From assembly GCA_000091205.1 (NCBI GenBank), contig AP006499.2: a stretch of 64,000 nucleotides of DNA. One strand, 5' to 3'. The notes below the pieces were generated by a model. That model saw only the letters and a program-made list of their open reading frames with translations. It ran no database searches and was not told where the DNA came from. The stretch comes from Cyanidioschyzon merolae (lineage: Eukaryota). Each line of letters begins with the position of its first letter. The stretch's first letter is position 1. Positions 1-64,000 of this stretch are shown here, in pieces. The position numbers and the translations under genes are program-made.

Positions 1-69
1 ACTTGACCACAGACGCCTCCTAGAATTTTTGGACCGGCCACCTACTACTGGTTCCAACTTATTCTTGCA

Positions 70-2176
70 TCATTCCACCTTGAATGGTTCTCCCACAAAA
101 TTCTCTCTTGTCATCTCTGGAAGTCTTTTTTCCATCACCACACATTTCCTGATATTGATTGCGGCGTTAAAGTCTCGGTTCACAAACTCCATCCGTTTCT
201 TGCCATCATTGATTGTACTTACTAATGCAAGTCGCCCATGAACGTTCGCCCTCCTTTCCATTTGCTGTCCCGTCAGCGGTCCGTATTTTTCATATCCTCA
301 GGGCTCCGCTGGCACTTTTTTCATCTCGAATCTCTGAAGTGTGCATCCCAGTTCATGGTGTATATACAATGCTCGGAACTCATCGATCGGTAGCGGAACG
401 AAACGCCTTGCGCACTCCTTGTACGTTCTCGCCGGTGGAGCTGGTGTAGTCCCTTTTTGGGTCTTCCAGCGTCCTGCTCCGTTTGCCACTACGAGCCTCT
501 GACGTTCATCCTCCTTCAAGCCACTCAACTGATTGAAAAAGTTGGCAAACGCCCGCTGCTTCCCACAATACAGGTTCATTCGCAGACGAGCCCACCGAGG
601 CTTTGTATACTCTTTCCACAGCGCATCCCAATGAGCAACGCGACCTTCCATGAATTTCCGAAAAGCTTCAAAGTCCGCTCCTCGACTCGTCACCTTGCTC
701 AAGGCCTCCAGGTGCTCTTTCAGTTATGCGTTCCACGTCTCGATTTTATTCCTTGCATTCATGATTCTGGAATCTCGATAGTTTCTTGCTCTCGAGAACT
801 TTAAAATACTCATGCCTTTCTGAAGTAAGTTGCCGTGGATTCCATCTTCCGCACGCTTGGGTACTGCGGTGGTTATGATACTTGTGCCCCAGGGTCCGCG
901 CCAACGACAAGGTCGTTATCCTGCACTTTCTGCGTCGCAGAATCCGCCTCCTTCTCATCTTCATGCTTCGTTACGGGCGAGGCCGAGCATGGAACAAGAC
1001 GATCCGCCTTCAGGCGCCGACGGTGTACACACATGGATACCCCATCGGTTTCGATCACCCCAGCGAATACCTTTTGTTCGCTGACTTTCAAACGTTTGAT
1101 TTCGAAGATATTTTTCTGGTACTTCTCCCGGTTGACACCGGTGACCTCCTTCCTGCTAACCTTGAACTCCGGACAGATCTCCCTCATGATGCCATGAAGG
1201 ACTGCGGAATCGATGGTCACGAAATGTGCCCTGATGTTGCACAACGGAACCACGTTGAAGCGCTTCTCCATTAGGAACGCTTCCGTCTCTCAGACGCTTC
1301 ATTGTTCCCGCGATTCAGCTCCATCTCCGCCTTGGGTTCGAGCTCTCGGTCTGGGTGCACGAAATAGCGCATAATTAGGGGATATCATCATTTTTTCACC
1401 TTTTTTCATATCTGATACCTTTTCTGCTGGGTTGACCGGCCTCAAGGGTGCACGGTGCTCATGAATAGTCGCACGGATTATAGAATCCTCATTCGTGCAC
1501 CTGCGTGATGTCTTCTTGTCGACGAACTCGATCTCCTGTTCAAGCTGCCGATCGTCCGTCATCCCATTGGTGATGGCCCATCTTTCCTTCGCGAGAGAGA
1601 CCCGGTTGGAGTGCAAACACGGCGCATATCATGAAGCCCTGGAGGTTCATGGTTAAACGGTCTCCAAGTTCGTTAGGTACCGCATGGCCCCGTGGGTGTA
1701 AATATTCCAGTCCCTCTGAATCGAGTACCGTAGAAGCTGTAGAAGGGATGCTTTTCGTGGAGGGCATGCACCCGCTCATTTCCCCTCGAGGTTTCCCCTG
1801 TGGCGAGCACCAGGTGGCGAAGAAGGGTCCTGCTGAAAAATTCTTCCGGAACCTCGGCTGTTTCGATGTCGGCCACGTCTTCATTCATCTCCTTCACCAA
1901 ATGCATTAGCCCTGACGAAGCCTTTATAACACTCATGGAGTAAGACGCAACACGGTTTCTGGGAGTCTCTTGCAACGCTTCCTTGGACGGATGCTTGATA
2001 TGTTTAAGATGGCAGGCTTTGACAACCATCACGTCGTTGTGCCGTCTTTCTTGCAGCCTTTGACGTCGGGCCTCCTTCATTTGCTTCTTTGTCTCGTCCT
2101 GTTCCTCTTCGCACTGGACTGTGTGTTCGTTTGTATCCGCCAGCTGACGACACTGGGCCTCCAGGAGCCTCCACTT
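70..2176 (-). pseudogene. Fanzor1-like RuvC nuclease (TnpB homologue) ORF remnant of copy LA, about 690 codons in 5 frame-shifted pieces
   Basis: The putative ATG at 2176-2174 follows a 5' leader intron. An N-terminal K/R/E-rich (NLS-like) stretch precedes the ASSGLMHLV block, the RuvC-I D in GADPG, LVVANGAGRW at the expected RuvC-II position (no Glu), HHELGCTLQRFE, and NRDFNAAINI (RuvC-III). Confidence 0.55.
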
Positions 2177-2209
2177 TCACTCGCATAACTTTCCTTTTTA
2201 ATTTTTTTT

Positions 2210-2274
2210 CTGAAAAAGAACGCACCTTGAATGCTTCAGGTATAAACAGCGAAAAATCACTTGAATACACTTAC
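2210..2274 (-). other. Putative 65-nt spliceosomal intron in the 5' leader of LA (GTAAGT...TTTTTCAG)
   Basis: Minus-strand reading is CTCAAG|GTAAGTGT ... GCGTTCTTTTTCAG|AAAAAAAATT. An intron of identical length with a GTGAGC...AG boundary sits at the homologous position of L+ (61441-61505). Confidence 0.5.
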
Positions 2275-3119
2275 TTGAGGGTTGGAATACGATTGAACTG
2301 AAAAGCATACTTTGCTACGACTTCAATGCAAATACACCGCGTGCAGCAGAACAACACGCTCTTGATACCGATCGCGTTTCCGTTCAAGAGCAGCATGCGC
2401 GAAGTGTCTCGTGTAACTGGCTGATGTCTCTGGTGCACGTGTCCAGCCCCCTACAGAAAAAAAACAGAGACTCACGACTAACTGGCAACGATATGACAAT
2501 TTCTTTCCCCCCTCTAAGGTAAACGTTAAAAGGCGAAAAGGTTTCCATATTGTCGAAAGTTTATTTTATAGGCGAAACGTCCCGCGAGCCGGACGTGTCT
2601 GCCAGACCAGTGCTTCATGCGACCCCAGTGGAAGGTGCTTGCTGGAAACCCGAGCAACTCGTGCGAAATGCAGTTTATTATGAGACTAGGAGCGGGTATG
2701 CTGCGTCAGGGCGTCGGCCTGGTCGCAGTTATCTCCTTACATATCGCTTGGCGCTGCCGCAGGCACTAGGTCTGTCTGCAGAGCTTGCAGGCTCCCAGAA
2801 AGATTATGTACTCTGGCTCTGTATCGGGAAAAGCGCTCCTCGATTCGATGCCCTCTGTGGTACGGTAACGCGGTTTTGTCTCCGCGATCCATCTGTTCCA
2901 GCGGTTTAGGCGCCACTACGGGTGCTCGTGGTAGGTACTCGCGCACGCTAGAACGTAAAAACCGACCAGTATGTCCGAGATGAAGTGTAAGAGATGGATC
3001 TTAGTCGGCCGGGGCGGGAAGGGCAGCATGATGAGCGCTTCCTCGAAAGCCACTACCCATCCATCCCGAAATCTGGGATCCATGGTAAATGTAAACGTTT
3101 GTCATCGAAAAAAAACAGA

Positions 3120-4483
3120 TCGAAATTAATATGCAATTCACCGTTTAGATCGAAGACGAATTGTCTCTAGTATGTATATTCTTTATTGAAGAGTGCAATG
3201 AGGACTGCATGGTTCCTTCAGGTCAGTCATAGCAGGTCACTCAGGTGGTTGACGAACACTGAAAGAGACCAACAGATGCGCTACGCGCCGAAAACTGATA
3301 TTCTTCAGGCCTGCTTGCGGTCAATGATAGAAAATGGTCCGTTGATAATGCTACCGAAGAGCAAAAGCTATGATAATAGACGTCAAGTAGGTGTCTCTGT
3401 TTCTCACTAGTTTGTTCATGTGGTCCAGCATACAGGGGGATACAGTCGCAAGAAAGTCCTAGTTCACGAACGGTCATCTTCCAATGAAATCGCAACGACA
3501 GCGTTCCTGGAGCTCAGCGATCGGGACAGAGTACAGGAACGTCGGGTTGTTTCAGTTGATGAGATTTCCTTTCGACAAAACGGTCGGAGCATGTATAGGC
3601 ATTTGTGGGGAAAAGAGCCTGTTATATATACGATCGAACTCGAAAATAACTCGGACCTCATTATCTGTTCTAGCTGCAGTCGATTCACTCTCCGGCCTCA
3701 GTCCCGCTCGTAGAGAAGGCTCATCCAACAGCACCAACCATTCCGTCGAATCATTGAAGACTTTTCCCTCACGTCTCGCGACGTTTTTCCACTGAAAAAC
3801 GTGGTATTTCAGCATTACCGTCGCGGTCGAGTTTTTGCCGATTCTGTCGGGGTAGAGTTGGTTTTCATTTCTCCGTGAGCTCCGTGATTCGGTCCCATCG
3901 AAGGAGAGTTTTCGATCGAAAAAAGGTAATGATCTCTCCACTGGGCGAATTGATGAAGCGTCCAGCACACGATGACACCGCGGACAATGTCGTCTCTCTT
4001 CTGCAAGTCTTCCTCTTTCCGGGAAGGTCCTCATTTAGGCACATTCAAAAGTGCGCCCATTCGCAGAAAATGAGGGATGAACTGAGGTGTATATTTCAGA
4101 AGGTCGAGATTGAGAGAAGGCAGCGGAGCGCTTCGGTGATAGGAAAGCACAGAGGGCTGACAGAGCACCACATGACGCTGAGGGTGCGAATTCGAGGACT
4201 ACTTGCACTGGTGAGTTCAACCAGCAGCAAAAAACGCATGAAGTTCGTGAATGGTGAGTTTAACACTGAGAAAAATACAAGGAGATGTGCATTGTTGAAG
4301 ACGAGACGCGAGGAGCTGACGCGAGCGAACTTTATGGGGTAGCCTCTCGGGTTCGAGGTGTACAAGGAGAAGCTGAAGCCGATCGCAGGGTGCCGGCCAA
4401 ATACGGTTTGAAGGCGCCTGCCGTTGGGCGAATATACATACTCAAAAGTCGTGGAATGTTGTTCGTTATACTGGAAAGAATAC
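3120..4483 (+). mobile_element. Short TnpB/Fanzor2-like element copy S1 (degraded, about 1.36 kb)
   Basis: The 5' end (CGAAATTAATATGCAATTCACCGTTTAGATCGAAGACGAATTGTC) is shared with S3. The interior has RuvC-I-like VLAAVDSLSGLSP and the C-terminal sequence MRDELRCIFQKVEIERRQRS...RGLLALVSSTSSKKRMKFVNGEFNTEKNTRRCALLKTRREELTRANFMG (degenerate RuvC-III). The conserved 3' block at 4373-4460 includes CGGTTTGAAGGCGCCTG and GCGAATATACATAC, and the 3' end TACTGGAAAG matches S5. There are multiple frameshifts. Confidence 0.65.
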
Positions 4484-15138: not shown

Positions 15139-16640
15139 TGCGCCACTACATCCATGTCAGAATAAAATTGAAGAGGTCCACTTAGCCGACATGGGTGCAA
15201 ACATCAGAATCATTTCAGAGTAAAACAGAATAGGTTCATCGCGCAAGCTTGGATCCGCACTCGCTATGGTTACGGCTCTTCCTAATGGCATCAACGCGTG
15301 CCTTTAGAGGCTTTTTCTATGACAGCTTCCCTTTACGCTCTTGTATCTCGGGCTCTATACAGGCCGACCTCCGCTTTCCGTCGAGCTCTGTTGCCAGCAG
15401 TCGGAGGATATTTATGGCAACATATTCGTTTGGATTCCGCCGTTTCCGGCTGCAGCAGACGCATTTCACGCACAGAGTGAAGATGAGATCTACGTTTCTC
15501 TTGCCATTTTCATACTCTTTGCACAAGGCCTCGATACGGTATTCGTAACCTTCAGAATTGCCACTGTTAACGTGTTTCAGTGTGTCCAACACAACTTCTC
15601 CTTCGAGGGCTAGCCTATGACGTATGAACGCTTACTTCATCGCTCGGTGCATGCCCTTGACAGGTACATAAGGTTCACCGCCCCGCTCCGATGTTCTCCT
15701 CGGTTTTCGCGCCCGGTACAGTTCCTTACGATCGCGGACCTCTTGTGAGCGATTCTCGCGGTGAGGGCACTGCACGCTGCTCGTGCAAGCCCAAACTGTT
15801 GTGTTTCAAACATGGATTGTGGAACACGATATTGTCCATGATCAAACAAGTATCGAAAGGAAAATTTAGGCTGGAGGGGAATTCGAGCTGTGTCGGTCCC
15901 TCTACGCTCGCTTCGTGCACAGCGGTGACGCATTCTCTAGTCAAAGCAATCACTGGAATGACTCAAGTCCGAGTCCAAGACGATTCTTCGTGTAAGAAGA
16001 ACAGACGGCAGCCGATGGGAGCGTATTCCTTGGTAGGTATCATGCTGCTGCCGTCGAATAGTGTTTCGTCGATGGACACCAAGAGCGGAGGGTTTGTCTT
16101 TCGAACGAAGTCCAGGATTTGATGTGAAAGGTTCGAAAAACAAGTGGCATGAGCTTTTTAACGACTGGTCAAGGGAGGCTGCCGCGTTTTTTCCTTCCTC
16201 AATCTAGCTACCCGAATTGATACCCCCACGAGTCGCGTTGAAAAGTGACCATCGAAACCTTGAAGAATGCGTTATTTGAGGACGTTACGCATATGGAAAT
16301 GAGCCGACTGGAGGGATGGACGTATGAATCGGATCATGACATCGGAATTTTACGAATACATTGTCGATGGGATCGCGAATCATTTCGATTCACGTGGCGG
16401 AACGAACTCAAGCGACAGAGAGTTTGAGGAGCCACTCCAAAATGACCGCCGAAAGTCCTGAAACTTCGAATGAATCCTCAAGTCCTTGCTGCCGCACTTC
16501 GAATGTCGAGGCTGTACTTCAGAAAACCATTCGAAAGAATCGAAATTATCTGAAGAGAGCGAGAAGCTGAGTGTTGCAATCAATTCTGAAACAGGTTTAG
16601 GAATCTTCTCTTCGGTGCTGCGAACGAATATTCCTTATCT
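15139..16640 (+). repeat. Unclassified repeat family E, copy c (C/H-rich module plus downstream conserved segments)
   Basis: Homologous to 40450-41885 at the nt and aa level. The module at 15170-15613 and LWNTILSMIKQVSKGKF...VRVQD at 15691-16122 match KDLWNSMLSMVEQMLEGKF...VRVQE at 41064-41324. The motif TGCTGCCGCACTTCGAATGTCGAGGCTGTAC is shared. Confidence 0.55.
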
Positions 16641-23054: not shown

Positions 23055-24505
23055 CTGCACGCTTTCTGGAGCGAAAAGTTTCGCGACCATAGAATGTACA
23101 CAAATAAACCTACTCACAGAAGACACCCAGCCTTTTTTGACGGACTGCATGCTATCGGCTTCAGCAACCCCTTGCACAGTTTGAGCCTTAGCGGTTGCGC
23201 GACAAAGTTCGCTCGCGTCACCTCCTCGTGTCTTGTCTTCAGCACTGCACATCTTTTGGTATTGATGGCGACGTTACCGTCTCGGTTCACGAAATCCTTG
23301 CGTTTATTGCCTCTGCTTGAACTCAGCATTGCAGGGATTGCTAGAGGTCCTGCCTTCTATGAAATCAAAGTCTCGTTATCGTCTCGTTGAGCAAACACAT
23401 TTTCTCGCCTTTTTCCGTTCTTCTTCTTTATCACTCGCTCTTCTTCGGTTGGTGGTCGGCGTGAAGAGGATCTTTTTTTTCGTTCCTTTTTTGTGGAACC
23501 CGGCGACACCGGGCCTCCAGGATCCTTGACGTCCGTGACCATACCTATTCCTCGGATTTTTTTTATTTGAAAATGAACGCACTTCTTTATGCCCTTAGAT
23601 GAGGGCCTTCCTGGAGCGAGCAGGATTTGCGGAACAAAAACTACTTGTGCCCCGGTGTGTCACCGTGCAGAACGCTCCAGGGACTCGCCCAGTGGAGCGA
23701 TCATTATGTTAAAGGATACAAAACACTCCTTCGATGAGGTTGAAACACGTAGAGCACGGAGGAATGAAAAGCAGCGCTATCTGGATAGAATCTGCAAAAA
23801 CTCGAACGCATCGGAAATGGTGCAATGCCACGTTTTCCAGTAGAGGGAAGTCGGCGGACGTCAGGGAAAAGTCTTCAATGATTCGAATTTGCGGGTGCTG
23901 TTGTATGAGTCTCCTGTACGAGCGAAACTGAGGCCGTCAAATGGATCAACTGCAGCTAGAATAGACGATGATGTCCTCGTTCTCCTCGAGATCGATCGCA
24001 CATACAACGAGCCCCCTCTTTTTGAATACCCATATACGCTTCGGCCGTTTCGTCCAAAGCAAGTCTCATTTACCGGCGAAACAAACCGCCATTCCCGTGC
24101 TTCATACCGATCGCGACGTTTCAGGGATGCTGTCGTAGCGATTTCGATGGACGATGGTCGTGCATGAGCTAGGACTCTTTTTTTGCGACTGTATCCCAGT
24201 GTTTTCAGTACCACATGAACAAGTTTTTGAGAAACAGATACACTCTTGGCGGCTACTATCGTCGCTTTTGCCTCCCGCAGGGTGATCAACGGGTCGTATT
24301 TCCACCATGGACCGCAAAGAGTCTTTAAGAATATGGCTCTTGGCGCGGAGCGCGTATCCTGTGATCTTTCAGTGATCCTCAACTATCTGAGAACTGCCGT
24401 ATGACTGACCTAAAAGAAAAATACGGTCCCCCGTGCACAATGAAGTAAGGAATATATATCCTCCAGGCAGTTTGCCTTCGAATTATACGGTACGATGTAA
24501 CTTGA
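23055..24505 (-). mobile_element. Short TnpB/Fanzor2-like element copy S2 (degraded), with a K/R/E-rich insertion module
   Basis: The 5' region (minus) matches S4. The interior has ILAAVDPFDGLSF (RuvC-I-like). The C-terminus is KRKDFVNRDGNVAINTKRCAVLKTRHEEVTRANFVAQPLRLKLCKGLLKPIACSPSKKAGCLL, and the conserved 3' core CTGAAGCCGATAGCATGCAGTCCGTCAAAAAAGGCTGGGTGTCTTCTG is the reverse complement of 23117-23166. An extra module (23376-23582, MRSFSNKKNPRNRYGHGRQGSW...RASDKEEERKK) is shared with S5. Confidence 0.6.
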
Positions 24506-24935
24506 TATCGATCTGCCGCTCGTACTGCGAAAAAGCATTCGATGACACGCATCAGCGGTGGAACAGAATTGACCTGAAAGTCCGCAGAAATCGAACAATC
24601 TTTCAAGGTTTTGTCCATGATTCTAAAATGTGATATATTGGTCCATAACGCATTGCACGCCAAGCGATCGCGAGCGCCGCTCCCCATGTAACGAGCACCG
24701 ACGCGCGTCTGACGCCGAGCCCGGGCCAAAACTCGAACCGGTGCTGCGCAGCGACGGCCGCGACACGATGTGGCGAATGCCGGCGTATTCGTCGACACTT
24801 TGTAGACGCTCTAGCGCAGGCTTTACGTAACGAACTTTTTCTGATCGAAAACCAAAACTCAGTTTGATCGTACCTTGTGCACGCGTGGACAGTAAAAACT
24901 TGTATTGGGACCGATAATTGTCATAGGACGCGACC

Positions 24936-30232: not shown

Positions 30233-31620
30233 CGAAATTATTGTGTAATTAACCTTTTAGATCGTAGACGAATTGTCAGTAGGGTACGTATTCTTTACTA
30301 AACAGTCCACGGAGAACTGCATTCCTTCTTCATGTCAGACATTCCACATCACGCAGATGGTTGCGGAACACTGGAAGACAGGCATAGACGCGCTCTGCGT
30401 CAAGAACCGATATTCTCCACGTGTGCTTCCAATCAACGGTAGAACACGATCCTTTGATCACCTTTTCCGGAAGTACAAAGCGACGATAATAGATGCCACC
30501 AGCGCCTCTGTTTCTAAACAGCTTGTTCATGTGGTCCAGAATACACTAGGATACTGTCGCAAGAATGTCCTAGTTCAATCACCGTCATCTCCCATGGAAA
30601 TCCCAGTTACAGTGCTCCTTGAACATCGAGATCGGTATGAAGCACAGGGACGTGGGTTTTTTTCCTCAGTCAATGAGACTTGCTTCCGATGAAACAGTCG
30701 GAGAAGATACGGATATTTGCGGAGCGGGGCGCCCGTTCCATATACCATCGAATTCGAGACGAACGACGAAATCATCATCCGTTCTAGTTGTAGTGGATTC
30801 TATTTACGGCCTCAGTTTCGATCGTGGGGAAGGCTCATACAACAGCACCAACCATTTTGTCGAATCATTGACGATTTTTCTCTAACATCTGGCGACGTCC
30901 TTCTACTGAACAACGTGGCATTTCACCAGCCCCCTCGCGGTCGAGCGTTTCCCGATTCTATCGGGATAGAGCTCGTTTTCATTCTTCCGTACGCTCCGTG
31001 ATTCAACCGGAACGAAGCAATCTTTTGTATCCTGAAATGCAACGATTGCTCCACAGCGAGATTCGCTGAAGCGTCCAGCACATGGTAAAACTGGGCCACA
31101 TTATGTACCATTTGCGCAAGTGCTTTTTCTTCCGGGAAGGGCCCCACCAAAGGCCATAAAGAAGTGCACTCACTCTAAAAGAATTAAGGGATGAGCTGGG
31201 ATGCACACTTCAGATGCTCGAGATTGAGAAAAGACTGCAGAGCGCTTTGGCGACAGAAATGTACGAAGACATGATAGAGCACCAAATGGCACAGAGGGCC
31301 TAAGTGCGCAGATTCCTCGCATAGGTGAGTACAAGCGGAAGCAAGAAAGGCATGAAGTTCGTGACCCGAGATTATAACGCTGCTATCAATATCAGGAGAT
31401 TTGCGGTGCTGGCGACGAAATCCCGGAAGCTGACGCGAGCTTCCTTTAGAGGGTCAGCATCTCAGGCTCGAAGTATGCTGGGATAAATACTGAAACCGAT
31501 AGCAGGCAACCGGTTGAAAAAGCCTGGGAGGCGTCTTCTGGTGGATATGCATATACCCCCACATGGCGGTGCGAAATTTTTTATTTCACTGAGGGTATGT
31601 ATTTTGATGGACTTAAATAG
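30233..31620 (+). mobile_element. Short TnpB/Fanzor2-like element copy S3 (degraded), with an intact RuvC-III motif
   Basis: The 5' end CGAAATTATTGTGTAATTAACCTTTTAGATCGTAGACGAATTGTC matches S1. The interior has VLVVVDSIYGLSF. The C-terminus is LRDELGCTLQMLEIEKRLQS...KKGMKFVTRDYNAAINIRRFAVLATKSRKLTRASFRG. The 3' core at 31491-31552 is CTGAAACCGATAGCAGGCAACCGGTTGAAAAAGCCTGGGAGGCGTCTTCTGG. Confidence 0.65.
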
Positions 31621-38427: not shown

Positions 38428-39788
38428 TAATTTATTGTGTACATCTTAGATGAATAGCCTGTAGGATATATTCTTTAGTAAACAATCCCTGCAGGACTGT
38501 ATTTATCCTTCAGGTCAGTCATACAACAGTACTCAGACGGCTCAGGAACACTGAAAGAAAGGAGTATATGCGCTCCGCGCCAAGTACCGATATTCTCAAA
38601 GCATGGTTGCGGTGAATTGTAGGAATTGGACCCGTTGATCGTTTTTTACGGAAAGCAAAAGCGAAGATAATAGCGAACACGGGCGTCACTTTTCTCACGA
38701 GCTTGTTCGGGTGGCGCTGAAAACAGAGGTATACTGCCGGAGAAAAGAGCCCAGTCTCATGCACGGCAATCTCCCGCTGAAATCGCCTCAGCAGAACTCC
38801 TGGAACGTTGCGATCTGTAAGAAGTAGAGGAACTCCGGATCGTTTTCTCTGTCAATCAGACTTTATTAGGAAAATACGGTCGGTGCGTGTATGGGTATTC
38901 GCAGAGCAGGCAGCCGGTTGTATGTAAGATGAAACTCACAGAGAACGAGGATATTATCATCTATTCTAGCTGCGGTGGATTTACTTGGCGGCCTCGGTTT
39001 CGCTCGTAGAAGAGAATCATGCAACAGCACCTGCTACGTCGAACCATTGAAGACTTTCCCCTGACGTCTCACGACGGCCTTCTATTGGACACCGTAGCAT
39101 TGCAACATTCCCCTTGCGTTCGAGCTCTTGCCGATCCTGTCTGGGGTAGAGCTGCTTTTCAATCCTTCATACACTCCCTGGAAAAATCCAATCGAAGGAA
39201 TGTTTTCTATTGTGAAACGTACTGATCGCTCTACTGGACGAATCGCTGAAGATCTCAGCACATGGTTACACCGAGGCACATGTCGCATGTCGTCCGCAAG
39301 TCCTCCTCGCTCCAGGAAGGTCCTCACCTCAGGGCCTAAAGATTTGCATTCATTTTCAAAAACCAAAAATCTCAGGGATGAGCTGGGGTGCACGCTTCAC
39401 AAGGTCGAGATGGAAAGAAGGCAACGGATCGCCTCGGCGATGGAAATGGACAGAGACATCACAGAGCTGCAAGTGGCATTGAGGGCGCGCATTCGAGGAC
39501 TCCTTGCACCGATGAGTATCACGAGTGAGAAGAAATGCATGGAGTTCGCGAACCGAGATTTCAGCGCCATCGTCAATATCAGATGATGTGCGGTGCTGAA
39601 GACAAGACCCGAGGAGCTGACGTGATCCACTTTTTGGGGCAGTATATCAGGCTCTAAGTGTACAGGGATAGAAACTGAACCTGACAGCAGGATATCGGTT
39701 GAAAAAGGCTGGGGCATCCGCGAATGGGCGAATATATACCATCCATAGGCGTGAAATGTGTATCCTTTTTCCTGCAGTATGTATTCAT
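38428..39788 (+). mobile_element. Short TnpB/Fanzor2-like element copy S4 (degraded)
   Basis: The 5' region is shared with S2. The C-terminus is LRDELGCTLHKVEMERRQRIASAMEMDRDITELQVALRARIRGLLAPMSITSEKKCMEFANRDFSAIVNIR*. The 3' core at 39675-39725 is GAAACTGAACCTGACAGCAGGATATCGGTTGAAAAAGGCTGGGGCATCCG, followed by GCGAATATATACCATCC. Confidence 0.6.
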
Positions 39789-40449: not shown

Positions 40450-41885
40450 GTGCGCCGCCACCGATACAGCATCTTCGGCTCCTTTATGCATGCACGCAGA
40501 TACATCCACGTCAAATTCAAATGGAACCGGGCACATTCACCTAACACGGATGTTTACTCTAAAGTTTGGGTCCGGTCCCTTTGCCATCAACACCAGCATT
40601 TGCGGCATTTTTACGCGACTGCTTCCTCTTGCTTTCTCTCACCGCCGGCTTTAAATATGCAGGTCTTTCCATTTCTCCAGCCGCGTTGCCAGAATTCGAT
40701 TGATCTGGATGACAGCATCAAGGTCCTGATTATGATGCTTCCGGCAGCTGCCGACGCAATTAAAGCAGATGCGGAAGTTGCTATCTACACCCTGCTTGCC
40801 ATTTTCATCTTCTTCTTACATCGCCTCGGTGTGCCCATTGCAGTAGATGCACTTGGCTGCGGTATAAAATTCCCATGGTTACACCACATATTCTCCTCAT
40901 AGGGCGGCCCTCTGAAGCGTGAACGTTTACTTCATCGCTTGCAGTAGGTCGATGAAGAGTACTTGAGGCTCCCCTCGGTTGCGTTCTCCGTTTCCGATCC
41001 CGATATCATGCCCCAAGATCATAAGCTTTTCCGGGGCAATCACATAAACGAGCTATCTGTCCGATGCGTGAACGCGCACTGTTCCATTCGATAAAAGATT
41101 TGTGGAATTCGATGTTGTCCATGGTGGAACAAATGCTAGAAGGGAAATTCGCGCAAGCGATCGAATCGAGAAATTTCGATCCGTTTACGCTCCATTCGTG
41201 CAAATTGTTGAAGCACTGTCGACTAGAAGCGATCGCTGCTATGATGCGAGTCCGAGTCCAAGAGCCTTTTCTATGGAAACAGAAGATATGGAATCATCTG
41301 AAAGATATCCATGTAGAGGTATGACGCTGGTGTGGACTGCATTTTCGTCGATAGCCACAAAAAGATGAATGATTCGTCTTCCGGAAGAAATTGATTATAT
41401 GGAATGAAATGCTCAGTATGTGTTCGGCGTGAGCTCGTGAAGAAATCGTCATGGAAGGTGACCGAGTGTTTTATTTCGTCCATAGAGCAGCGCGGATTGC
41501 TGCGCCCAAGATTTGCGTTGAAGTAGAAAAAAAATTCTTCGAAATTCCTTATTTGACTATGCAAGAGGTAATAAAAAGATAAGAAAGAATTCTTTTACAC
41601 ATGGATTGGATGATCAAATTGTTTATTCGAAGCACCGTCGTTTGAGGGTGTCACGAATACTCTTTATAACGGTGACGTACCAAAATTCCAGGGGCAGAGT
41701 GTCGACAGTGCTACTCCAAGAGAACGATCGCAAACCCCAAACTGCTTATGCATCCATCAGCCCTTGGTGCTGTGCATCGAATGTTAAGGCTGTACATCTA
41801 TAAAGAAGATCGACAAAGTCGACATGCATAAAGCGAGTGCGCGGCTCAGTTTCACATTTAAATTTCACTTCAGGATTATATCAAC
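40450..41885 (+). repeat. Unclassified repeat family E, copy b (C/H-rich module plus downstream conserved segments)
   Basis: ORF 40423-40902 (HVKFKWNRAHSPNTDVYSKVWVRSLCHQHQ...LPAADAIKADAEVAIYTLLAIFIFFLHRLGVPIAVDALGCGIKFPW) and 41064-41324 are homologous to copy c (15139-16640). Copy b carries an AT-rich insertion at about 41500-41640. Confidence 0.55.
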
Positions 41886-42439: not shown

Positions 42440-44800
42440 CACACCAGCGACACGTGCCAGTTGGGAATCGAGTGCGATCACTCCTGGCGGCTGAGATTCT
42501 TCTCGACGGTCGTCTTCACCGTTTCAGCGCAACGCCGACACTGAGTAATGAGCGATTTCCTCGAAATTTCGCTTGAGACAGAGCTGCTGAAAGCTCAGGA
42601 AGCACGAGAAGTTTCCGGACGTTGGTCGAGATCTTCAAGTCACGATGCAGAAACCGCTTGCCGGAATGCGTAAAGTTGGAATCACAGCCAAGAAAGCATC
42701 TCATCTTCATCCATGATGGCATCTGACGGTGAACCGGCGTACCGAATAATATCTCGTACACCCAGTTCAGTTTCAATGTATTTTTTTCGACCTGTTCCCG
42801 CAGGCGCCCATGCACATGTTGCCTGGATGCCGTAAAAAACTGATCGATGAGACTCACATAGAATCGATTCTAGCACTTGTCATGCGCTCTCGTTGAAGGC
42901 GTGGGAGTGAAGCCTTTTAACGGTCCAGCACGTTCATAATAATCGGATACCATCAAACGACACGATTTCTCGGTCATATTCTTTCCCAAGTCATTGAAGA
43001 AGTTGGCAAATGCGCGCTGCCCTGCCCTGTACAATTAAAACCGTTGGCGGCTCGAGCACGTTTCCATATGCGCCCAACAGGAATCGTACGCATGAGCCAC
43101 TTGGACGCATTCGCATTCTCTGACTGGAGAAAGCAAAGCATTGTCCCTGCTCGACAAATTGCCAAGGGCGTTGAGACTGGTCCTGAAGCTGCCATTCCGC
43201 CCATTGGTATTCCTAATAGCGCGCATCATTCTCGAGCCCAGATGGTATCGACCTCTGGGAAATTGCTTTTCTTGATCTACTTTCTGTTCATGTATTTAAC
43301 TTGGCCCTCTTTATTTAGAGGTACCCTGGCAGCCATGGCGGTCTTAAATCGGCGATCTATGCCCCTGAAATGATCGTTCTATTCATCTTCTCTAAAGATT
43401 AAAAACGAGTCATGTTGCTCGACTCAGTCCTAGGTTTCACGAGTTTCTTGATGTCCTCCCAGCTAAATTCTCTGCCGGTCTCCGTGGTCCATGTAAAAGC
43501 TTTCCGTTTCACCCCTGTAGACGAGAAACCTTGCACGAGCTCCGCCGATGCTCTTCCCGATATTGTTGGAATGCGTCGTGGTTTCTCGCAGAGGGCAACT
43601 CTATCTTCACCTTTCTCGCTCCATGGCTGGCCAGCATGAACGTTGTTGCTCAGCTTCACATCCGTTTTCCCCGCAGAATCCAGACGCACCGTCCAGACGC
43701 ACTGCTCCGAGCGTGTTACCGAAACTTGCCCTCTCTATTCATGTATCCTCTATTTCTTAACTAAATTTTCGCTTTCTGCTCCGTCGCGAGCATGCCCATG
43801 AACCGAAGCGCGCCTTTTCGCTTCCTCTCTCGCATGAGTTGAGGAGCAACGCAGCAGTCGTGGTGTTTTGAAAGCAGAGAACGATTTTGCGAAGACCGCT
43901 ATCACGGATGCGAATGACTCTTCTGTATCATAGATCATATAAATTGCGTTTGACGGTAGAGTAGACACCTTTGACTGGACTGGGCCAGGGAGAGTAAATA
44001 CGCACGAAGAGAAGCTCAAATCTTGTCCCAGCAGTGTCCCGCTAACCGTTTTGAGTAATATGAAGCAGTGTAATCTAGGAACAGGAAACAGGTATGTGGG
44101 AAGGAGCCGCCCCGAGTTATGCCTCGAGAAATGATGAGCTATTTAATGATTCATTCAGTTTGACCATTCGATTCATACACCGCCGAGGCTGATAATGGCG
44201 GATTACTCGCTTTTCTAGTCTTCAGAAATAGTTATTTGCCTCTTGCTGAGTGCCCGTGTAGAGTTCTCGCATTTCTCTCGAATGCAGTCTCATCTAGTGA
44301 TTCGAAAACCCATCTCCAATCTAATGAGCGCTCCTATTTTAGTACCAATTCTACACCATGCTGCTCAGCGCGCGATGGTTTCCAGTAGAAGCGCGCGTTT
44401 TGCTTTATACATCCACGTCTCTTCGCCACCGTCCGTTCCAACGATGCGAGAAGCTCATTTCCTGTCGATTTTTCAATGTTATTTCTTAGGGAACGTATGG
44501 AGTGGCGTGAATCGGCTACGGGGCAGCCTTGCACATAGTGATCGGATGGTTCTGTTTCGTCGACGCGACCTCCGGGATAAAAGCTAAGATATGGATGGTC
44601 CATCCCCTTGTTGATCCATTGAACGACTAACCTCGTCGAGTAAGTTTTTATTTCTCGCCAGCTAATATTGACAGTATAAAGCCTTTCCATAACCTTTCCC
44701 TAATCTACAGGATACAATACTTTCGTTAAATACCCGCTAGAAGAGCAAACATAACCAGTAAGGTTGCGGTGATCCAGATAGTCCAGAATTCACTGCACTG
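42440..44800 (-). mobile_element. Long TnpB/Fanzor1-like element copy L3 (diverged, degraded)
   Basis: Minus-strand segments align to LA/L+: 44334-44690 (YSTRLVVQWINKGMDHPYL, about the ASSGLMHLV block), 43750-44019 (...DGAESENLVKK, about GDGAESREQ), 43399-43689 (VKRKAFTWTTETGREFSWEDIKKLVKP, about VRKIEFTGETSETYWKNIFDIKHLK), 43035-43229 and 42880-43040 (VQVAHAYDSCWAHMETCSSRQRF*...QRAFANFFNDLGK, about VRVAHWDALWEEYTKPRW...QRAFANFFNQL), and 42516-42857 (RFYVSLIDQFF...GKRFLHRDLKISTNVRK, about RDFNAAINIRK). The 3' core at 42472-42530 resembles the family block. Confidence 0.55.
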
Positions 44801-51471: not shown

Positions 51472-52000
51472 TTGTATCGCCAGTAAAATGGACAACATTT
51501 CATGATCATAGAGGGAAAATATATACCTTCTCACAGACGCTTCCCAGCCTTTTTCAATCAGTTGCCTGCTATCGGTTTCAGTGTTTATCCCCGCACGCGT
51601 CGAGCCTACGAGGCTATCCCAAGAAGTTGGATCGCTCCAGCTCCTTGGGTCTCGTCTTCAGTGCGACACACCTTCTGATATTAATGGCGGCGCTGACGTC
51701 TCGGTGCAAGAACTCCACGCGTGCATTGACGCTGGTTAAACTCGCCACTGCAAGGATTGCTGGAAATCGTGCCCTCTGTGTAACTACAGTCTCGTCATCG
51801 TCCCGTCTCGTAAACACCTTTCCTCGCCTGTCTCCTCTTTTTTCTTCTTCGTCACTTGCTCTGCTTCGCTCAATATTCGGCGAGAAGAGAATTTTTTCCG
51901 TTTCCTTCAGGCAGCCAACGATGACGGCCTTCCAGGATCCGGGACTTCCATGCCCATGCTTTGTCCTTGGATTTTTTATTTCTTCAAATGAACGCACTTG
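51472..52000 (-). mobile_element. 5'-truncated short TnpB/Fanzor2-like element copy S5, closest to S3, with an intact RuvC-III motif
   Basis: Minus ORF 51614-51997: MRSFEEIKNPRTKHGHGSPGSW...RASDEEEKRGDRRGK (the module shared with S2), then ...PAILAVASLTSVNARVEFLHRDVSAAINIRRCVALKTRPKELERSNFLG. The 3' core (reverse complement of 51523-51578) is CTGAAACCGATAGCAGGCAACTGATTGAAAAAGGCTGGGAAGCGTCTGTGAG. The tail GAAATGTTGTCCATTTTACTGG matches the S1 tail. Confidence 0.6.
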
Positions 52001-52208
52001 GGGTCCATCTGCGATAAACCGCGAAAAAGCATTTGCTTACACGCACCTGGGGTCGGAATATCATTGAGGTCAAAGACTAGAAGCAGAATCCTCTGGGTAC
52101 TTACGCGGGGCGTCGTCCCTCTGGCGAACTTGCGCTCGGAGAGGCGCGCGGATTGTTTATGCAGATTCTCGCGTTTCAACGCATATCAAAAAGGTTTCCG
52201 CAGGCCTC

Positions 52209-58880: not shown

Positions 58881-60989
58881 ATTTACTTGTGTCGATGTGT
58901 AGAACAGGTGAGCAGTCCAAAGAGCACACAGCATTGGATGGGTGCGATAGCCATATGGCTATGCTGATGAAGTCTGTGACGAGGTCCCTCTGCTTAATCG
59001 CTGAGAAACTTTTCTCGTCCGATACAGTGCCTTGCATGGGTTTCGGATGTTCGGCTTGAACGCTGTTTCCGTCAAAACGCCGCACGGGTGCAACCGCACG
59101 AAACCTCTCCCAGCCTTTAAACATCTAGGGAGCACCCCCTTTGGATTCTACGCTTCTACCAGCGAGCAAGCAAGAGAGATTTTTGCTGATGATTCAGAGG
59201 CCGTCAGAATAATTAGAAGGGTCTTCCTTAACGTTTACCCGAAAGGCTGTAGCACGCCAGCTCGACAGGAGTCTTCAAAAAAGCTCAAAGTGTTGACAGT
59301 ACGTGAGCGAAGAGCAACTGCACTCATGCAAACGTCTACCCCTACACCGCATGGAGACTTTCCAGTATGCGGGATTCTTGGATACAGCATCCTCCAAACC
59401 AGTGGGAAAATGAATTTTACTTAACGCGTCCTTGAGCCGCCGCCCGCGAGGGTGCTGTAAAGCTGCGCTGCCTCTGTACGACGTGCACAGACCCGCGCCT
59501 CGCACCCGAGAGAGCCCCCACTGGAGACTAGGCTGCTGGAGAGCCGCGTGCTCGATCAAGCCAATATTCCACAGGCGTTTCCATGACTAAAGCTGGCTGA
59601 GCGAGGAAATGCCCGTGGGTGAGGTGAATTCTCTGTTCTGAGCATTGAGAGTACGTCCACATCAGTGGAAACTTTTAGAAGCTTTCATCTAAATGAAATA
59701 ATTAGTGCATTTACCTCATCGGGCTGTGCCCGACTCATGAAATGACTAAGCGTTTGAACTAGACTGTCTCATTTCCGCACCAATGAAATGGCGCTTTTTT
59801 CCCGCGGAGCTGTTTGTTCACTTACGTTGTAGCTGTATATCAACGAATCCAATCATCACTATCCAAAAGCTGAGTTGCAGTTGGATGCTGAGGAAGAAAT
59901 CACTGTAGCAATCGAGGCCTCCGTAAGTTAGACCGACCCCACCCGTGTGTCAGAATAAAACGGAACGTCGCACTGCTCGCTTTTCCCATGCCTTTCTAAT
60001 TTTAGCCCAATCATTTCTTAGATGCGCATCCTCCGCACTCAAACTAAAATAATAAAAGTTTACAGGTTCACTCGTGGTTTTTTTGGATTCTCGTTCGTTT
60101 TTCCGTGGTAGCTTGTTCGACTCTTTGTTGCTGGAATGCGTTTCTTTGTCGAAATCATAATGATTCACGACGCCATTGAACAAGGATTCGTAAAGTACCC
60201 GATTATATTATCCAGTTGATACGTCCAAGATTCCATTTTTCTCCTTTCTTTGCGTCTAGTACGATGAAACAGCGCATTCTTCAAGTGTTTGACCTTTCTG
60301 CTTCAAGACAGCTGGAGCGCGTAGCAACTTGCACCGCTGGATTGACGACGACGAAGAAAATTCGACATCGTCCCTTGAATAGCGTTTCGTAAACGCACGC
60401 CAAACGCTCACTGAACCAATCACAGCAAGTAATCGATGCGGTTCGAAAAGCAAGTCCTTCCCTCTTGATCGCCATCGACGAAACGGGATTCCGCCGCAAT
60501 TATAAGCTATCTCTCACGGGACCCGCTCCCAGAGGCACCCATCTCATTTTCCGCGCGGAAAAGGTTCTTGGACTAGAACTAGAGTCGTCGCTGCGATCGC
60601 TTCCACTCGGGATTCCGTCACCGCTTTGAGCCTGGGGGCGTACACGGATCGAGATCTCTCGAGCGCTTTCACAACCTGGAGCTTCCTTCTGGTACTTGTT
60701 TCAGCATGGTCAACATAGCGTTCCGTGAATCCTCTATCGAATAGAACAGCGAGCACTCGGGCGCGCAGCAGACATAGTACTCGCCAAGTAGTCACCCAGC
60801 TCAAGCACGTCATCGTAGAGTTCGCCGTCGGACCCGGAAACGGAGGAGCGAACGGACAGGACCCTTTTCTGGCTGTCAAATTGGCATGTGCCGAACGATG
60901 AAGAAAGGGTTCATGATCTGCAGGGCGACCCTTTGAGGAACAGTTTTCGGGTATATAGGGGAACACTTGACCACAATCAGATGTCATCG

Positions 60990-61165
60990 CCGCGATGAGC
61001 GCACCGCGACTTTACGCGAGGAAGACGCAAATGGCAAGCAAAGCGTAGATCGCATCTCCCTTTCGAGCATTAGATGCGTGAGCAGCAGCCGGAAGCAGTG
61101 AAATGGTGGCTTTGACACTGCCATCAACATACTTCTACTTCTGAAAACGGAGCTAGAGGGACAAG
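60990..61165 (-). repeat. Partial copy (d) of the E-family C/H-rich module, directly upstream of L+
   Basis: The minus-strand translation DGSVKATISLLPAAAHASNARKGDAIYALLAICVFLA* matches DGSVQVPISLPPGVLETVHPEAVVTIYALLAIAIF of copy a. The nt motif GATGGCAGTGT(C/T)(A)AAG is shared. Confidence 0.5.
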
Positions 61166-61440
61166 AGAATTCTGCGTTGCTACAGGCGCATATGAGAGAG
61201 ACAAGGGAAGTAGTCAAACATCATGCCCGCCAAGACTGGTATTGACGAAAGTGAGAAGCGACCCAAAGCCTAGTCTTTTCTCCCGAGTTAGAGGGTCGGT
61301 CCTCGTTTGTTCAGAAATGAGTGTAGATCTGCCTCCACGTTGGGGGCCTATTAATGAAATGATTCATAATCCGCGTCCTCCTGCTGGCAAACCTGCTCTT
61401 TCTACTTATGGTCTATCACCTCAATTTAGTTCCAATCTCA

Positions 61441-61505
61441 GGTGAGCGTCATCGAATGCTTTTTCGCAGTTTTCAGCAGGAGCATTGGAGTGCATTCATT
61501 TTGAA
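61441..61505 (+). other. Putative 65-nt spliceosomal intron in the L+ 5' leader (CTCAG|GTGAGCG...TTTTGAAG|)
   Basis: Same length and position as the LA intron (GTAAGT...CAG). A leader of about 25 nt precedes the ATG at 61531, as in LA. The upstream ORF 61242-61445 cannot be spliced in frame, so exon 1 is non-coding. Confidence 0.5.
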
Positions 61506-61530
61506 GAAATGAATAATCCAAGGTGAAGCT

Positions 61531-63678
61531 ATGGATATGCAGGACAGAGATCCTGTTCACCAAGTGTCGCCGGCTGCCAGAGAAAAGCAAAAAGCAGTGT
61601 CTAGTCCAGAGGAAAAGGAGAGGACAAGAAAGAAACGGCAGGTGGCCCGAAGTCAATGGCCGCAAGAAAGACGAATGTACGACGATACGGTGGTGATAGC
61701 CTGTCTTTTCGGACATATCACGGATACGTACGAGGAAAAATTGCGAGACGCCATCAGAAACCGTGTCGATTCGTACTCCATGAGTACTAGAAAGGCGTCG
61801 TCAGGGCTAATGCATTTGGTGATGAAGATGAACGAAAACGTGACGCACATGGAAACAGTCGCGGTTCCGGACGAGTTTTTCGACAAGACCTTTATTCGTA
61901 ACCTAATGCTTGGCACAGGCGAAACACGGAGAGAAAATAGCGGGTTCACGCCCTCCACGAAAATTATGCCGAACTCCGCTTCGAGGGTACTCGAAACAGG
62001 GGTGACCAGGATATTTACGCATGCGGAGCGATGAAGTATCTCACGAACCTGAAGAACCATTTGACGATGAACCTCGAACGTTCCATGATACGCGCCGTGG
62101 TTGCACTCTACTCGGGCCTGTCTCGCAAAGGACTGCGGGCGATTATCAATGGCATCACGAAGGATCGCAAGCATGAAGATGAGATCGAATTCGTCGACAA
62201 GAAGACGTCACGCAGGAGCACAAATGAAGCGTCTGTAATCCAAGGGGTTATAAAAGAGCGCCGTACAGTGTTGGGGCTGGCGAATCCAGTAGAAGAGGTA
62301 TCAGATATGAAAAAAATGAAGAGAGACACTATCGCCTCGTCCTGCGATATTTCGTGTTTTTGGACCAAGAGGTCGAACGCAAGAAGGAGATGAAGCTGAG
62401 TGAGCAAAAAATGAAGATTGGGAGAGACGGAAGGCTGCCCTGACGGGGAAGCGCTTCAACGTCGATCCGATATGTAACGTCAAGTCATACTTTGTGGGTA
62501 TCGATTCAAGAGTCCTCCATGGAATCATGAAGGAGATCAGTCCGGAGTTCAATGTAAGGAAGATAGAGTTCACTGGTGAAACAAGTGAGACGTACTGGAA
62601 AAACATCTTCGATATCAAACATCTCAAAACGAGCAAGCAAAAGGTATTTACTGGGATGATTGAAACCGATGGAGTAGCCTCGTGTGTGCACTATCGGCGG
62701 TTGAAGAAAGATCGGCCAGTCCCTTCGTCGGCTGCGCCCGTTACGAAGGATGAAGAAAACAATGAGGAGGATCCTGCGATGCAGGAGGTGCAGGATAACG
62801 ACCTTGTCTTTGACATGACGAAGGATGAAGAAAAGAAGAAGGCGGATCCTGCGATGCAGAAAACGCAGGATAACGACTTTGCCGTCGGCGTGGACCCTGC
62901 GAATACGAATGTCATAAGTATCGCAGTACCTAAGCGTGCGGAAAACGGTACTGACGGTAATTTACGTCAGAAAGACATGCGTCTGTTGAGATTCTCGAGA
63001 GCGAGATTCTATTGGGAATCGGGAATAATGAATGCGAGGAAGAAAATCGACACTTAGAATGCAGGAATGAATAATCACCTGGAAGCTTTGAGCGAGGTGA
63101 CTAGCCGAGGAGCGTACTATGAAGCCTTTCGGAAATTCATGGAAGTTCGTGTTGCCCACTGGGATGCGCTGTGGGAAGAGTATACTAAGCCCCGGTGGGC
63201 TCTTTTGCGAATGAATCTATACGGTGAGAGGCAGCGGGCGTTCGCGAATCTTTTCAATCAGTTGAGCGCCCTCAAAGAGGATCAAAGTCAGAGGCTGGTA
63301 GTGGCATACGGAGCACGGCGATGGAAGACCAAAAAAGGGTATACGCCAGCTCCAACGACAAGAACGTACAAGGATTCCGCAAGGCGTTTCGTCACGATAC
63401 CTCTAGATGAGTTTCGAACATTGCATACACACCATGAACTGGGGTGTACATTTCAGAGAGTGGAGATAGAAAAGTGCCAGAGGAGCCCTGAGGATATAAA
63501 AAAGTATGGACCGCTGACGGAAGAGCAAATGGAAAGGATTTCGAAAGTTCGTGGACTACTTGCATTAGTAAGTAAAACCAGTGATGGTAAGAAACGTATG
63601 GAGTATGTGAACCGAGATTTTAATGCCGCTATCAATATTAGGGAATGTGCGGTGCTGGAGAATAGGCCTCCAAAGTAG
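61531..63678 (+). pseudogene. Fanzor1-like RuvC nuclease (TnpB homologue), about 690 codons in 4 segments (61531-62034, 62031-62393, 62494-63057, 63067-63678)
   Basis: N-terminal K/R/E-rich region, then the ASSGLMHLV block. RuvC-I is DNDFAVGVDPANTNVISIAV. LVVAYGARRW lies at the expected RuvC-II position. The Cys/His cluster is HTHHELGCTFQRVEIEKCQ, and RuvC-III is GKKRMEYVNRDFNAAINIRE. A +2 frameshift at 62031, a stop or frameshift near 62391-62403 and an in-frame TAG at 63679 (PPK*TRENFIGQPLKVE...) disrupt the ORF. Confidence 0.65.
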
Positions 63679-63836
63679 ACAAGAGAGAACTTTATTGGAC
63701 AACCTCTCAAAGTGGAACTATATGAGAGAAAGTTGGAAGCAGTGGTGGATGCCCGGTCCGAAAAGACGGGGAGGCGTCTGCACGTCAGCTGGAGAGGATT
63801 TGTCTAAGGCGCGCTGATCGCCACTACTGTCCACCG
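63679..63836 (+). ncRNA. Candidate omega-RNA (guide RNA scaffold) region of L+, conserved with the 3' blocks of all seven other copies
   Basis: AAGTTGGAAGCAGTGGTGGATGCCCGGTCCGAAAAGACGGGGAGGCGTCTGCACGTCAGCTGG (63731-63792) aligns with the reverse complement of 1-62 (LA) and with the S-family core CGGTTGAAAAAGGCTGGGAGGCGTCTTCTGG. The conservation persists where the overlapping ORF tails differ in stop position and frame. Confidence 0.4.
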
Positions 63837-63870
63837 CCGGCGAGCACGCGCTCGTGCGCGTGCTCGCCGG
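63837..63870 (+). other. Perfect 15-bp inverted repeat (hairpin) CCGGCGAGCACGCGC-TCGT-GCGCGTGCTCGCCGG at the 3' end of the L+ conserved block
   Basis: Read directly from the sequence. Its position suggests a 3' structural element of the candidate RNA, a terminator, or a subterminal transposon hairpin. Confidence 0.75.
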
Positions 63871-64000
63871 ATGCCGCTCCGCGACATGAAATCCGCCACC
63901 AACCCCCTTTTCGGTTTATTGCTGAGGTGGTGGGAGTGTATTGCTCGTTTGAAAAACCGTGAATTCGGGAAAGATGCGGGAATCAAAAATTTGCAAGCCA

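Follow-up and report, generated by a model that had tools for sequence, protein, structure and literature searches.

The 64,000-nucleotide (nt) stretch of the Cyanidioschyzon merolae genome analyzed here (contig AP006499.2 of assembly GCA_000091205.1; hereafter the window) carries near its 3' end a hairpin that terminates a decayed transposable element. By sequence comparison this element is CMe-1A, the Fanzor1 element of C. merolae or a very close relative. We propose that the hairpin is the 3'-terminal stem-loop of this dead copy and that it would correspond to the last, poorly constrained stem of an omega-RNA (guide RNA) scaffold before the guide, a reading to which we assign a probability of about one half. 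The hairpin, at 63837-63870, consists of CCGGCGAGCACGCGC TCGT GCGCGTGCTCGCCGG, in which a stem of 15 perfect pairs carries a 4-nt loop, exactly as an earlier reading of the DNA without database searches (the sequence-only reading) had described it; 158 nt separate it from the stop codon (63676-63678) that closes the final piece of the nuclease open reading frame (ORF), in agreement with the spacing of about 160 nt given there. The minimum-free-energy structure of 63660-64000 contains it as drawn, and no other perfect stem of at least 10 bp (loop of 3-10 nt) is present in the entire window. In 20 shuffled versions of the window the longest perfect stem measured 8-11 bp, and a pattern search for the hairpin has an expectation of 0 chance matches.

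CMe-1A was described as a family of about 150 copies, each about 80% identical to a consensus of about 3 kb, that has no terminal inverted repeats, whose target-site duplications were undetermined, and which was left without an assigned class; its 5' 635 bp equal another element, TE-N2_CMe, and the only protein listed for it is the Fanzor (Bao and Jurka 2013, PMC3627910). The published consensus begins with CGATGACAAAACGTTTACATTGACC, which matches the 5' terminus that we derived from multiple copies (TTTCTTTTCGATGACAAAACGTTTACATTGACC), and the 3' block adjoining the window hairpin, together with the motif GCCACTACTGTACACCGCTGGCG, matches its end. The published CMe-1 protein likewise aligns with the ORF pieces in the window; the consensus CMe-1 protein has 734 amino acids. 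Our searches recovered 254 clusters of related proteins and 157 related stretches in metagenome contigs, with a DNA identity between copies of typically 76-88%, and a 5' module of about 650 bp is joined to the rest of the element in either orientation, or directly to the 3' part of internally deleted copies. The likeness to CMe-1A extends over the 5' terminus, the 3' block, the protein, the copy number, the level of identity and the 635-bp TE-N2_CMe module. Where the present analysis differs from the published description is at the 3' end: the latter gives no hairpin, omega-RNA or exact 3' terminus, and its consensus finishes with ..GCCACTACTGTACACCGCTGGCGGCAGCGTTTTTCTTTTGAAAGGCG (..CACCGCTGGCGGCAGCGTTTTTCTTTTGAAAGGCG), i.e. 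inside the hairpin of the family, which PMC3627910 does not mention. Relative to the consensus, the copy that bears the hairpin (L+) is truncated at its 5' end, where about 170 nt of the body are missing along with the 635-bp TE-N2_CMe module, is frameshifted, and has a private GC-rich hairpin.

The position of the hairpin with respect to the element was established by comparing the 3' block by BLAST with 84 loci and by computing a conservation profile from 37 copies, drawn from metagenome contigs. The BLAST matches end at query positions 149-170, mostly at 156-170, where query positions 159-170 correspond to 63837-63848 of the window. In the profile the nuclease ORF scores 0.77-0.90, the segment 63680-63799 scores 0.73-0.83 and the segment 63820-63839 scores 0.79; the values fall to 0.44-0.62 across the hairpin and from 63880 onward are about 0.24, which is the background. 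The DNA 3' of the hairpin is unique among all the loci compared. Because conservation drops from 0.73-0.83 through 0.44-0.62 to about 0.24, the hairpin closes the conserved block, as the sequence-only reading had claimed, and its foot marks the 3' boundary of the element, a placement that is new.

We surveyed about 50 independent metagenome copies of the family, searching 46 non-redundant tails for stems. Approximately 34 of the 46 form a stem of at least 8 bp that begins in the conserved motif CACYGYYGGCG, and most copies fold back directly 3' of a near-invariant GCCACTACTGTACAC-CGCYGGCG. These hairpins range from about 8 to 19 bp, and in most copies their 3' strand ends in ..CGTTGTTGGTG, the last conserved sequence before the flank. 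The tails nevertheless differ in sequence from copy to copy and fall into at least five sequence types, examples of which are given in the table. As a group the 50-nt tails are more structured than shuffled versions of themselves (mean z = -2.2, with 23 of 47 below -2), as against a z of about 0 for control sequence 150 nt beyond the tails. It had been asked whether other copies carry the same hairpin at the same distance from the ORF, and whether the hairpin might instead be unique to this copy and lie outside the element. The answer is divided: the sequence of the window hairpin is indeed its own, whereas a hairpin at this position is shared across the family and falls within the element. 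With regard to the flanks, we also considered whether the 5' flanks of copies repeat the 3' tail, as in a long target-site duplication or a tandem junction, and rejected this, as the scores equal those of controls (p = 0.55). One 5' flank (L027, about 150-190; also L015), CATTTGCTGTTGCCGCTGA, resembles a type-B 3' tail, CGTTTGCTGTTGCTGGTGA, and may, from its sequence, be a remnant of an end-to-end arrangement; no such similarity was seen in the other 15 copies.

The ORF upstream of the hairpin had been taken for a relative of TnpB, and the wider comparison bears this out. Since Pfam scans with the window pieces or close copies gave no match, and a sequence search of the PDB likewise none, the family assignment was made through remote homologues and a fold search. 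In all, 878 homologues, many of them 600-700 amino acids long, came from a complete scan of representative proteins. A 54-sequence alignment shows no variation at D55, E227 and R294 and conservation of at least 90% at D295, and PF07282 (TNB/zinc-ribbon, Cas12f1-like) is matched by 9 of the 54 members (best E = 3e-5); the cysteine pattern is degenerate (HHELGC..C). An AlphaFold2 model of a homologue (P0033; predicted local distance difference test score 85, predicted template modeling score 0.80) retrieved in Foldseek the SpuFz1 structures 9cey and 8gkh as its best matches (E = 4e-11 to 7e-11, TMq 0.57-0.59), followed by PpFz1, GtFz1 and then Cas12 and TnpB proteins, with TnpB 8h1j ranking 12th (E = 1e-3). 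As the model best matches Fanzor1 structures and the catalytic residues are conserved, the element carries a Fanzor1, as published. The gene in the window still shows legible RuvC motifs (VGVDPANTN, DEFRT and NRDFNAAINI), and it is broken by frameshifts and by a private TGG>TAG nonsense codon at 63055-63057. That codon reads TGG in 52 other copies and TGA in L003; hence the idea that the in-frame TAG between the last two ORF pieces is a conserved feature was discarded. Judged by these lesions, the L+ copy is a pseudogene that is no longer functional. The Fanzor ORF also contains a 75-nt tandem repeat (62743-62806 and 62818-62881) that encodes an acidic/lysine-rich stretch just before RuvC-I, the number of units varying from two in the window to about five in another copy (L075, 3448-3827).

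Several statistics speak to the strand on which the structures matter. The tails are more stable on the sense strand in 39 copies and on the antisense strand in 8 (Wilcoxon p = 2e-6), and the corresponding control with flanking sequence shows no bias (25 versus 21). The stems contain 58 G.T against 12 A.C oppositions, counted with a scorer that treats both alike. The consensus fold of the 3' block reaches -49 for the sense strand, compared with -35 for the antisense. Together, the sense-strand bias, the excess of G.T and the better sense fold of the block favor a role as RNA on the sense strand. The fold of the block comprises 48 pairs, seven of them G.U in the consensus, and includes a long-range helix of 13 bp; 89.6% of the cells are paired. 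It was obtained from a trimmed alignment, RNAalifold having given almost nothing on the full 299-column alignment that included the flank.

The arrangement seen in CMe-1A finds a ready parallel in the characterized Fanzor1 systems. In these, the omega-RNA scaffold spans the region from the stop codon of the nuclease to the right end of the element, with the guide being the 14-15 nt beyond (PMC10432273); a conserved first stem-loop (SL1) is followed by one to three variable stem-loops before the guide, and the stretch from SL1 to the guide "may not be constrained" (PMC11423790). A guide-proximal region that is variable and little constrained fits the presence of several unrelated hairpin sequences at one and the same position. 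As the layout of CMe-1A, namely a conserved block, a stem-loop that turns over and a unique flank, fits that of Fanzor1, we read the hairpin as the guide-proximal stem-loop. The comparison with the omega-RNAs of SpuFz1, GtFz1 and PpFz1 (PMC10432273, PMC11423790) extends over the nuclease fold, the conserved non-coding region from stop codon to right end, the stem-loop directly before a variable flank or guide, and the variability of the stem-loops nearest the guide. In contrast to these, the candidate scaffold of CMe-1A would be about 190-210 nt long as opposed to 75-150 nt, has no inverted repeat embedded in it, and is known here from sequence alone.

On this analogy, the block of about 160 nt and the hairpin would form the omega-RNA scaffold, which would be transcribed with or after the nuclease mRNA and bound by the Fanzor. 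Past the conserved core, the hairpin would form the final stem-loop before the guide, a role for which the next 14-20 nt of flank (here from 63871 on) would be used. In the window copy a private, GC-rich perfect palindrome has taken the place of the stem's apical two thirds, and Watson-Crick pairs that of the basal wobble pairs; the palindrome was probably a DNA-level event in this lineage. The sequence-only reading had offered three functions for the hairpin, and a structural element of the guide RNA is the best supported of them, by the position before a variable flank, the sense-strand stability and the G.U-rich consensus, though the hairpin lacks covariation.

This and several other observations weigh against the omega-RNA proposal. 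In the type-A subset hairpin covariation scores 0.116, compared with 0.129 on average for shuffles, 439 of 500 of which reach the observed score; compensatory changes in the hairpin that can be picked out by eye were therefore set aside as anecdotes, formal covariation being nil. The block shows weak to moderate covariation (0.122 versus 0.112, reached by 2 of 500 shuffles; 14 double changes versus 8 expected), a value that related sequences can reach without structure. Where copies depart from the consensus pairs, about 42% of the changes preserve pairing, a figure near that expected of neutral decay. Because the copies descend from few master sequences, the G.U and strand counts are not independent events. 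The window hairpin itself has no wobble pairs and is about equally stable on both strands (-36 versus -39 kcal/mol), so that taken alone it is uninformative on the choice between RNA and DNA. Finally, Rfam yields nothing at the gathering threshold in the window, and in 63400-64000 only chance-level matches (E of about 1 or more).

Among the alternatives, the one that survives best is that the hairpin is a single-strand DNA signal marking the right end for a transposase that moves both CMe-1A and TE-N2_CMe. Such a transposase might be of the HUH/rolling-circle type, as in Helitrons, Replitrons, IS91 and IS200/IS605, elements that use a hairpin at the right end as a termination or cleavage mark. 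This proposal, which we regard as doubtful, is compatible with an RNA role, since the right-end hairpin of IS200/IS605 lies inside the omega-RNA. It draws on the absence in CMe-1A of terminal inverted repeats, of a recognizable target-site duplication and of a class (PMC3627910), a terminal hairpin without inverted repeats being a hallmark of HUH transposons (PMC10288648), as well as on the location of the hairpin exactly at the element boundary and on the fact that in the window it is a perfect DNA palindrome. Further, the left end, TTTCTTTTCGATGACAAAACGTTT, resembles in direct orientation the loop and 3' arm of the most frequent right-end hairpin, TTTCTTTTGAAAGGCGTTT (a score of 9.5, with P = 0.02 relative to shuffles), and copies devoid of the TE-N2 module begin with a small hairpin, GCGCTCAGTGAGCGC. 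However, the likeness of the two ends is marginal, the 5' flanks are unlike the 3' tail (p = 0.55), and TE-N2_CMe, which shares the left end, has a 3' end of its own, ..GTCTCTGTTCTTTGTTCTA, without a comparable hairpin. The strong sense-strand bias and the many G.T pairs, which would weaken a DNA hairpin, also speak against it, and several unrelated sequences at the same position are hard to square with a site for a sequence-specific protein.

The resemblance to Helitron, Helitron2 and Replitron (PMC3627910, PMC10288648) lies in the terminal hairpin, the lack of terminal inverted repeats and possibly the short direct similarity of the ends. CMe-1A differs from them in lacking a CTRR end, asymmetric terminal inverted repeats and any RepHel or Rep gene. 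A test for Helitron features (5' TC, 3' CTRR about 10 nt after the hairpin, insertion between A and T) failed, the canonical 3' CTRR being absent and the ends reading TTTC... and ...TGGTG or ...CAGGGG. Homologues of the Replitron transposase were not found in red algae (PMC10288648). Fanzor1 genes do ride as passengers in green-alga Helitrons, and Bao and Jurka, who defined Helitron2, placed CMe-1A in no class (PMC3627910). The more specific proposal, that the hairpin and the weak left-end similarity are together the signal of a hairpin-dependent single-strand (HUH/rolling-circle-like) system moving CMe-1A and TE-N2_CMe, is in our estimate improbable. Around the left end, an A lies directly 5' of the element in about 9 of 13 full-length copies, and beyond this frequent A there is no conserved 5'-flank motif.

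It is also conceivable, if rather unlikely, that the hairpin of the window copy is a private mutational by-product without a function of its own, the family hairpins being merely inherited; on this view, fold-back or template-switch repair, upon insertion or later, would have turned the tail into a perfect palindrome. Of 94 loci, none but this one has the core CACGCGC-N4-GCGCGTG, the outer GGCGAG..CTCGCC is found at just one further locus (L003-L005), and the closest relatives by the 3' block have an ordinary type-A tail. The closest partial relatives (P0057, P0085 and P0049) have ordinary or truncated type-A tails and none of the window type. The basal CCGGCG..CGCCGG corresponds to the basal pairs of the family with U changed to C, the final 8 nt of the right arm (CTCGCCGG) sitting where the family has its terminal ..YGTTGGTG, and the apical part is new. 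That a copy differing by about 15% from its nearest relative has a perfect 15-bp stem is suggestive of a templated DNA event, and the pseudogene status of the copy and the lack of a covariation signal in the hairpin are in keeping with this. On the other hand, L001, another contig of this locus that was assembled independently, has an identical hairpin despite single-nucleotide polymorphisms nearby; a further contig of the locus (L007) ends at the second base of the hairpin. A by-product also leaves unexplained why unrelated sequences (L008, L029, L068 and types A, B and C) fold at the same position, why the tails are structured and the flanks are not (z = -2.2 versus 0), and why there is a strand bias. 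A mutational origin thus explains the private palindrome of the window copy and not the pattern across the family.

The two remaining suggestions of the sequence-only reading are not supported. Intrinsic terminators are a bacterial device. A transcription terminator or mRNA 3'-end signal of the nuclease gene, which the location 3' of the ORF and the G/U-rich family tails past the stem might bring to mind, is very improbable because the hairpin is followed by ATGCCGCTCC, without a U-run, and the host is eukaryotic, as its Sin3, CLC and PPR genes attest; moreover, type-B hairpins hold T5 in stem and loop, where RNA polymerase III would halt short of the end.

Least probable of all is the subterminal hairpin of an IS200/IS605-type element mobilized by a Y1 TnpA. 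The combination of a TnpB-family nuclease, a right-end hairpin and no terminal inverted repeats or target-site duplications does recall ISDra2 and ISHp608, as does the notion that one hairpin could act as both DNA and RNA; but the genome is eukaryotic, the protein groups with Fanzor1 and not with IS605 TnpB (8h1j, as above), and CMe-1A encodes the Fanzor and no second protein (PMC3627910), the full-length copies having no other sizeable ORF. A Y1 HUH TnpA is absent from the full-length element copies, the rest of the genome not having been searched. Fanzor1 is carried by diverse eukaryotic transposons, only Fanzor2 keeping an IS607-type context (PMC3627910). There is, in addition, no left-end hairpin of the same kind: a subterminal hairpin occurs at the right end and none at the left end of the full element, only the module-less copies starting with GCGCTCAGTGAGCGC, and the hairpin sequences of CMe-1A are not conserved in the manner of a protein site.

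The features discussed are collected in the table, together with others in the window. Among the latter is a second, minus-strand copy of CMe-1A (L-), the 3' end of which, with any hairpin, falls beyond window position 1. Six more fragments of the C-terminal RuvC region of Fanzors are also present; they probably represent older or different Fanzor families, and no comparable hairpin lies 3' of the four that were checked (about 4080-4310, 31190-31430, 39360-39610 and 42600-43175).

Table. Features of the CMe-1A copies and related sequences in the window, and hairpin tails of the family
Feature	Position	Strand	Sequence	Remarks
L+ copy of CMe-1A	61420..63870 (start approximate)	+		5'-truncated
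Decayed Fanzor1 (CMe-1) ORF	61531..63678	+		four pieces: 61531-62034, 62031-62393, 62494-63057, 63067-63678
Conserved non-coding 3' block	63679..63836	+		candidate omega-RNA scaffold; conservation near ORF level
Long-range helix, 5' strand	63740..63748	+	CAGTGGTGG	pairs with 63821-63829; helices 5 and 6, 88-93% of cells paired
Long-range helix, 3' strand	63821..63829	+	CCACTACTG	within the near-invariant GCCACTACTGTACAC motif just 5' of the hairpin
Hairpin, left arm	63837..63851	+	CCGGCGAGCACGCGC	first 6-8 nt (CCGGCG[AG]) are part of the family-conserved terminal motif CACYGYYGGCG
Hairpin, loop	63852..63855	+	TCGT	read from sequence
Hairpin, right arm	63856..63870	+	GCGCGTGCTCGCCGG	similarity between copies stops here
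First 20 nt of unique host flank	63871..63890	+	ATGCCGCTCCGCGACATGAA	would be the guide position of an omega-RNA, by analogy with PMC10432273
L- copy of CMe-1A	10..3115	-		5' end complete; TE-N2 module 2459-3115; frameshifted
Fanzor-related fragments	~4079-4306, 31193-31429, 39359-39610			31-57% protein identity
Fanzor-related fragments	42600-43175, 23231-23320, 51647-51760	-		31-57% protein identity
Type A tail			GGCG-TCGTTCGA-CTT-TCGAACGG-CGTTGTTGGTG	
Type B tail			GGCGACAACGTTTTTC-TTTT-GAAAGACGTTTG..TGGTG	
Type C tail			GGCGACTGCTTT..GAAGCGTTCGTCGT	
Short form, L008			CACTGGCG-ccat-CGCCGGTG	
Short form, L029			CACGGGCG-gcat-CGTCCGTG	
Short form, L068			CACGGTCG..CGACTGTG	

The organization of the 5' part of CMe-1A varies between copies. 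The TE-N2 module is attached to the Fanzor body in either orientation or is absent (L021 1651-2298, L084 1503-2323, L003 3130-3170, and others), some copies have a different shared 5' region, and the module-less body begins with its small hairpin followed by CTGGGAGATC. From such sequence arrangements, the CMe-1A "element" may be a composite of two units. The DNA just 5' of the L+ copy (60153-60749, 61018-61158 and 61400-61523) is 64-79% identical to other sites in the window (15821-16390, 41079-41271, 40675-40815, 51965-52088 and 24524-24583), which are other dispersed repeats.

The window is intron-poor, with a Sin3 homologue, a CLC channel and a neighboring PPR gene, and a nuclear CpcD gene on related metagenome contigs indicates a cyanidialean red alga. 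In a sister species, a syntenic contig (L086, 8120-9614) has the same CLC and PPR neighbors as 58816-64271 in window coordinates, the PPR protein being 79% identical. The CLC-PPR interval measures 1.5 kb in that contig and 5.45 kb here, and because it is so much shorter there, the insertion-rich region is absent in the sister species. By this syntenic comparison the entire interval, L+ copy included, has accumulated insertions in a lineage-specific manner; no base-level boundary could be obtained from the empty site, the DNA being too diverged.

CMe-1A is an already known family, and a Fanzor1 with a 3' scaffold is a known kind of system; a terminal hairpin and a candidate scaffold are not described for this family in the literature examined. 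The description of the element dates from 2013, when the RNA guidance of TnpB and Fanzor had yet to be discovered, and it left the ends and the class open. The window copy itself is of small practical meaning, as it is a dead element whose palindrome is a private variant. If the hairpin were indeed the signal of a single-strand system, a red-alga transposon that has so far resisted classification would gain a class, and there would be a eukaryotic parallel to IS200/IS605, with one right-end hairpin serving as both a DNA signal and a part of the guide RNA. If the omega-RNA proposal holds, the segment 63679-63870 would be the scaffold and the sequence from 63871 the guide, which together offer a concrete candidate omega-RNA for a red-alga Fanzor1, and one that is directly testable in a genetically tractable organism.

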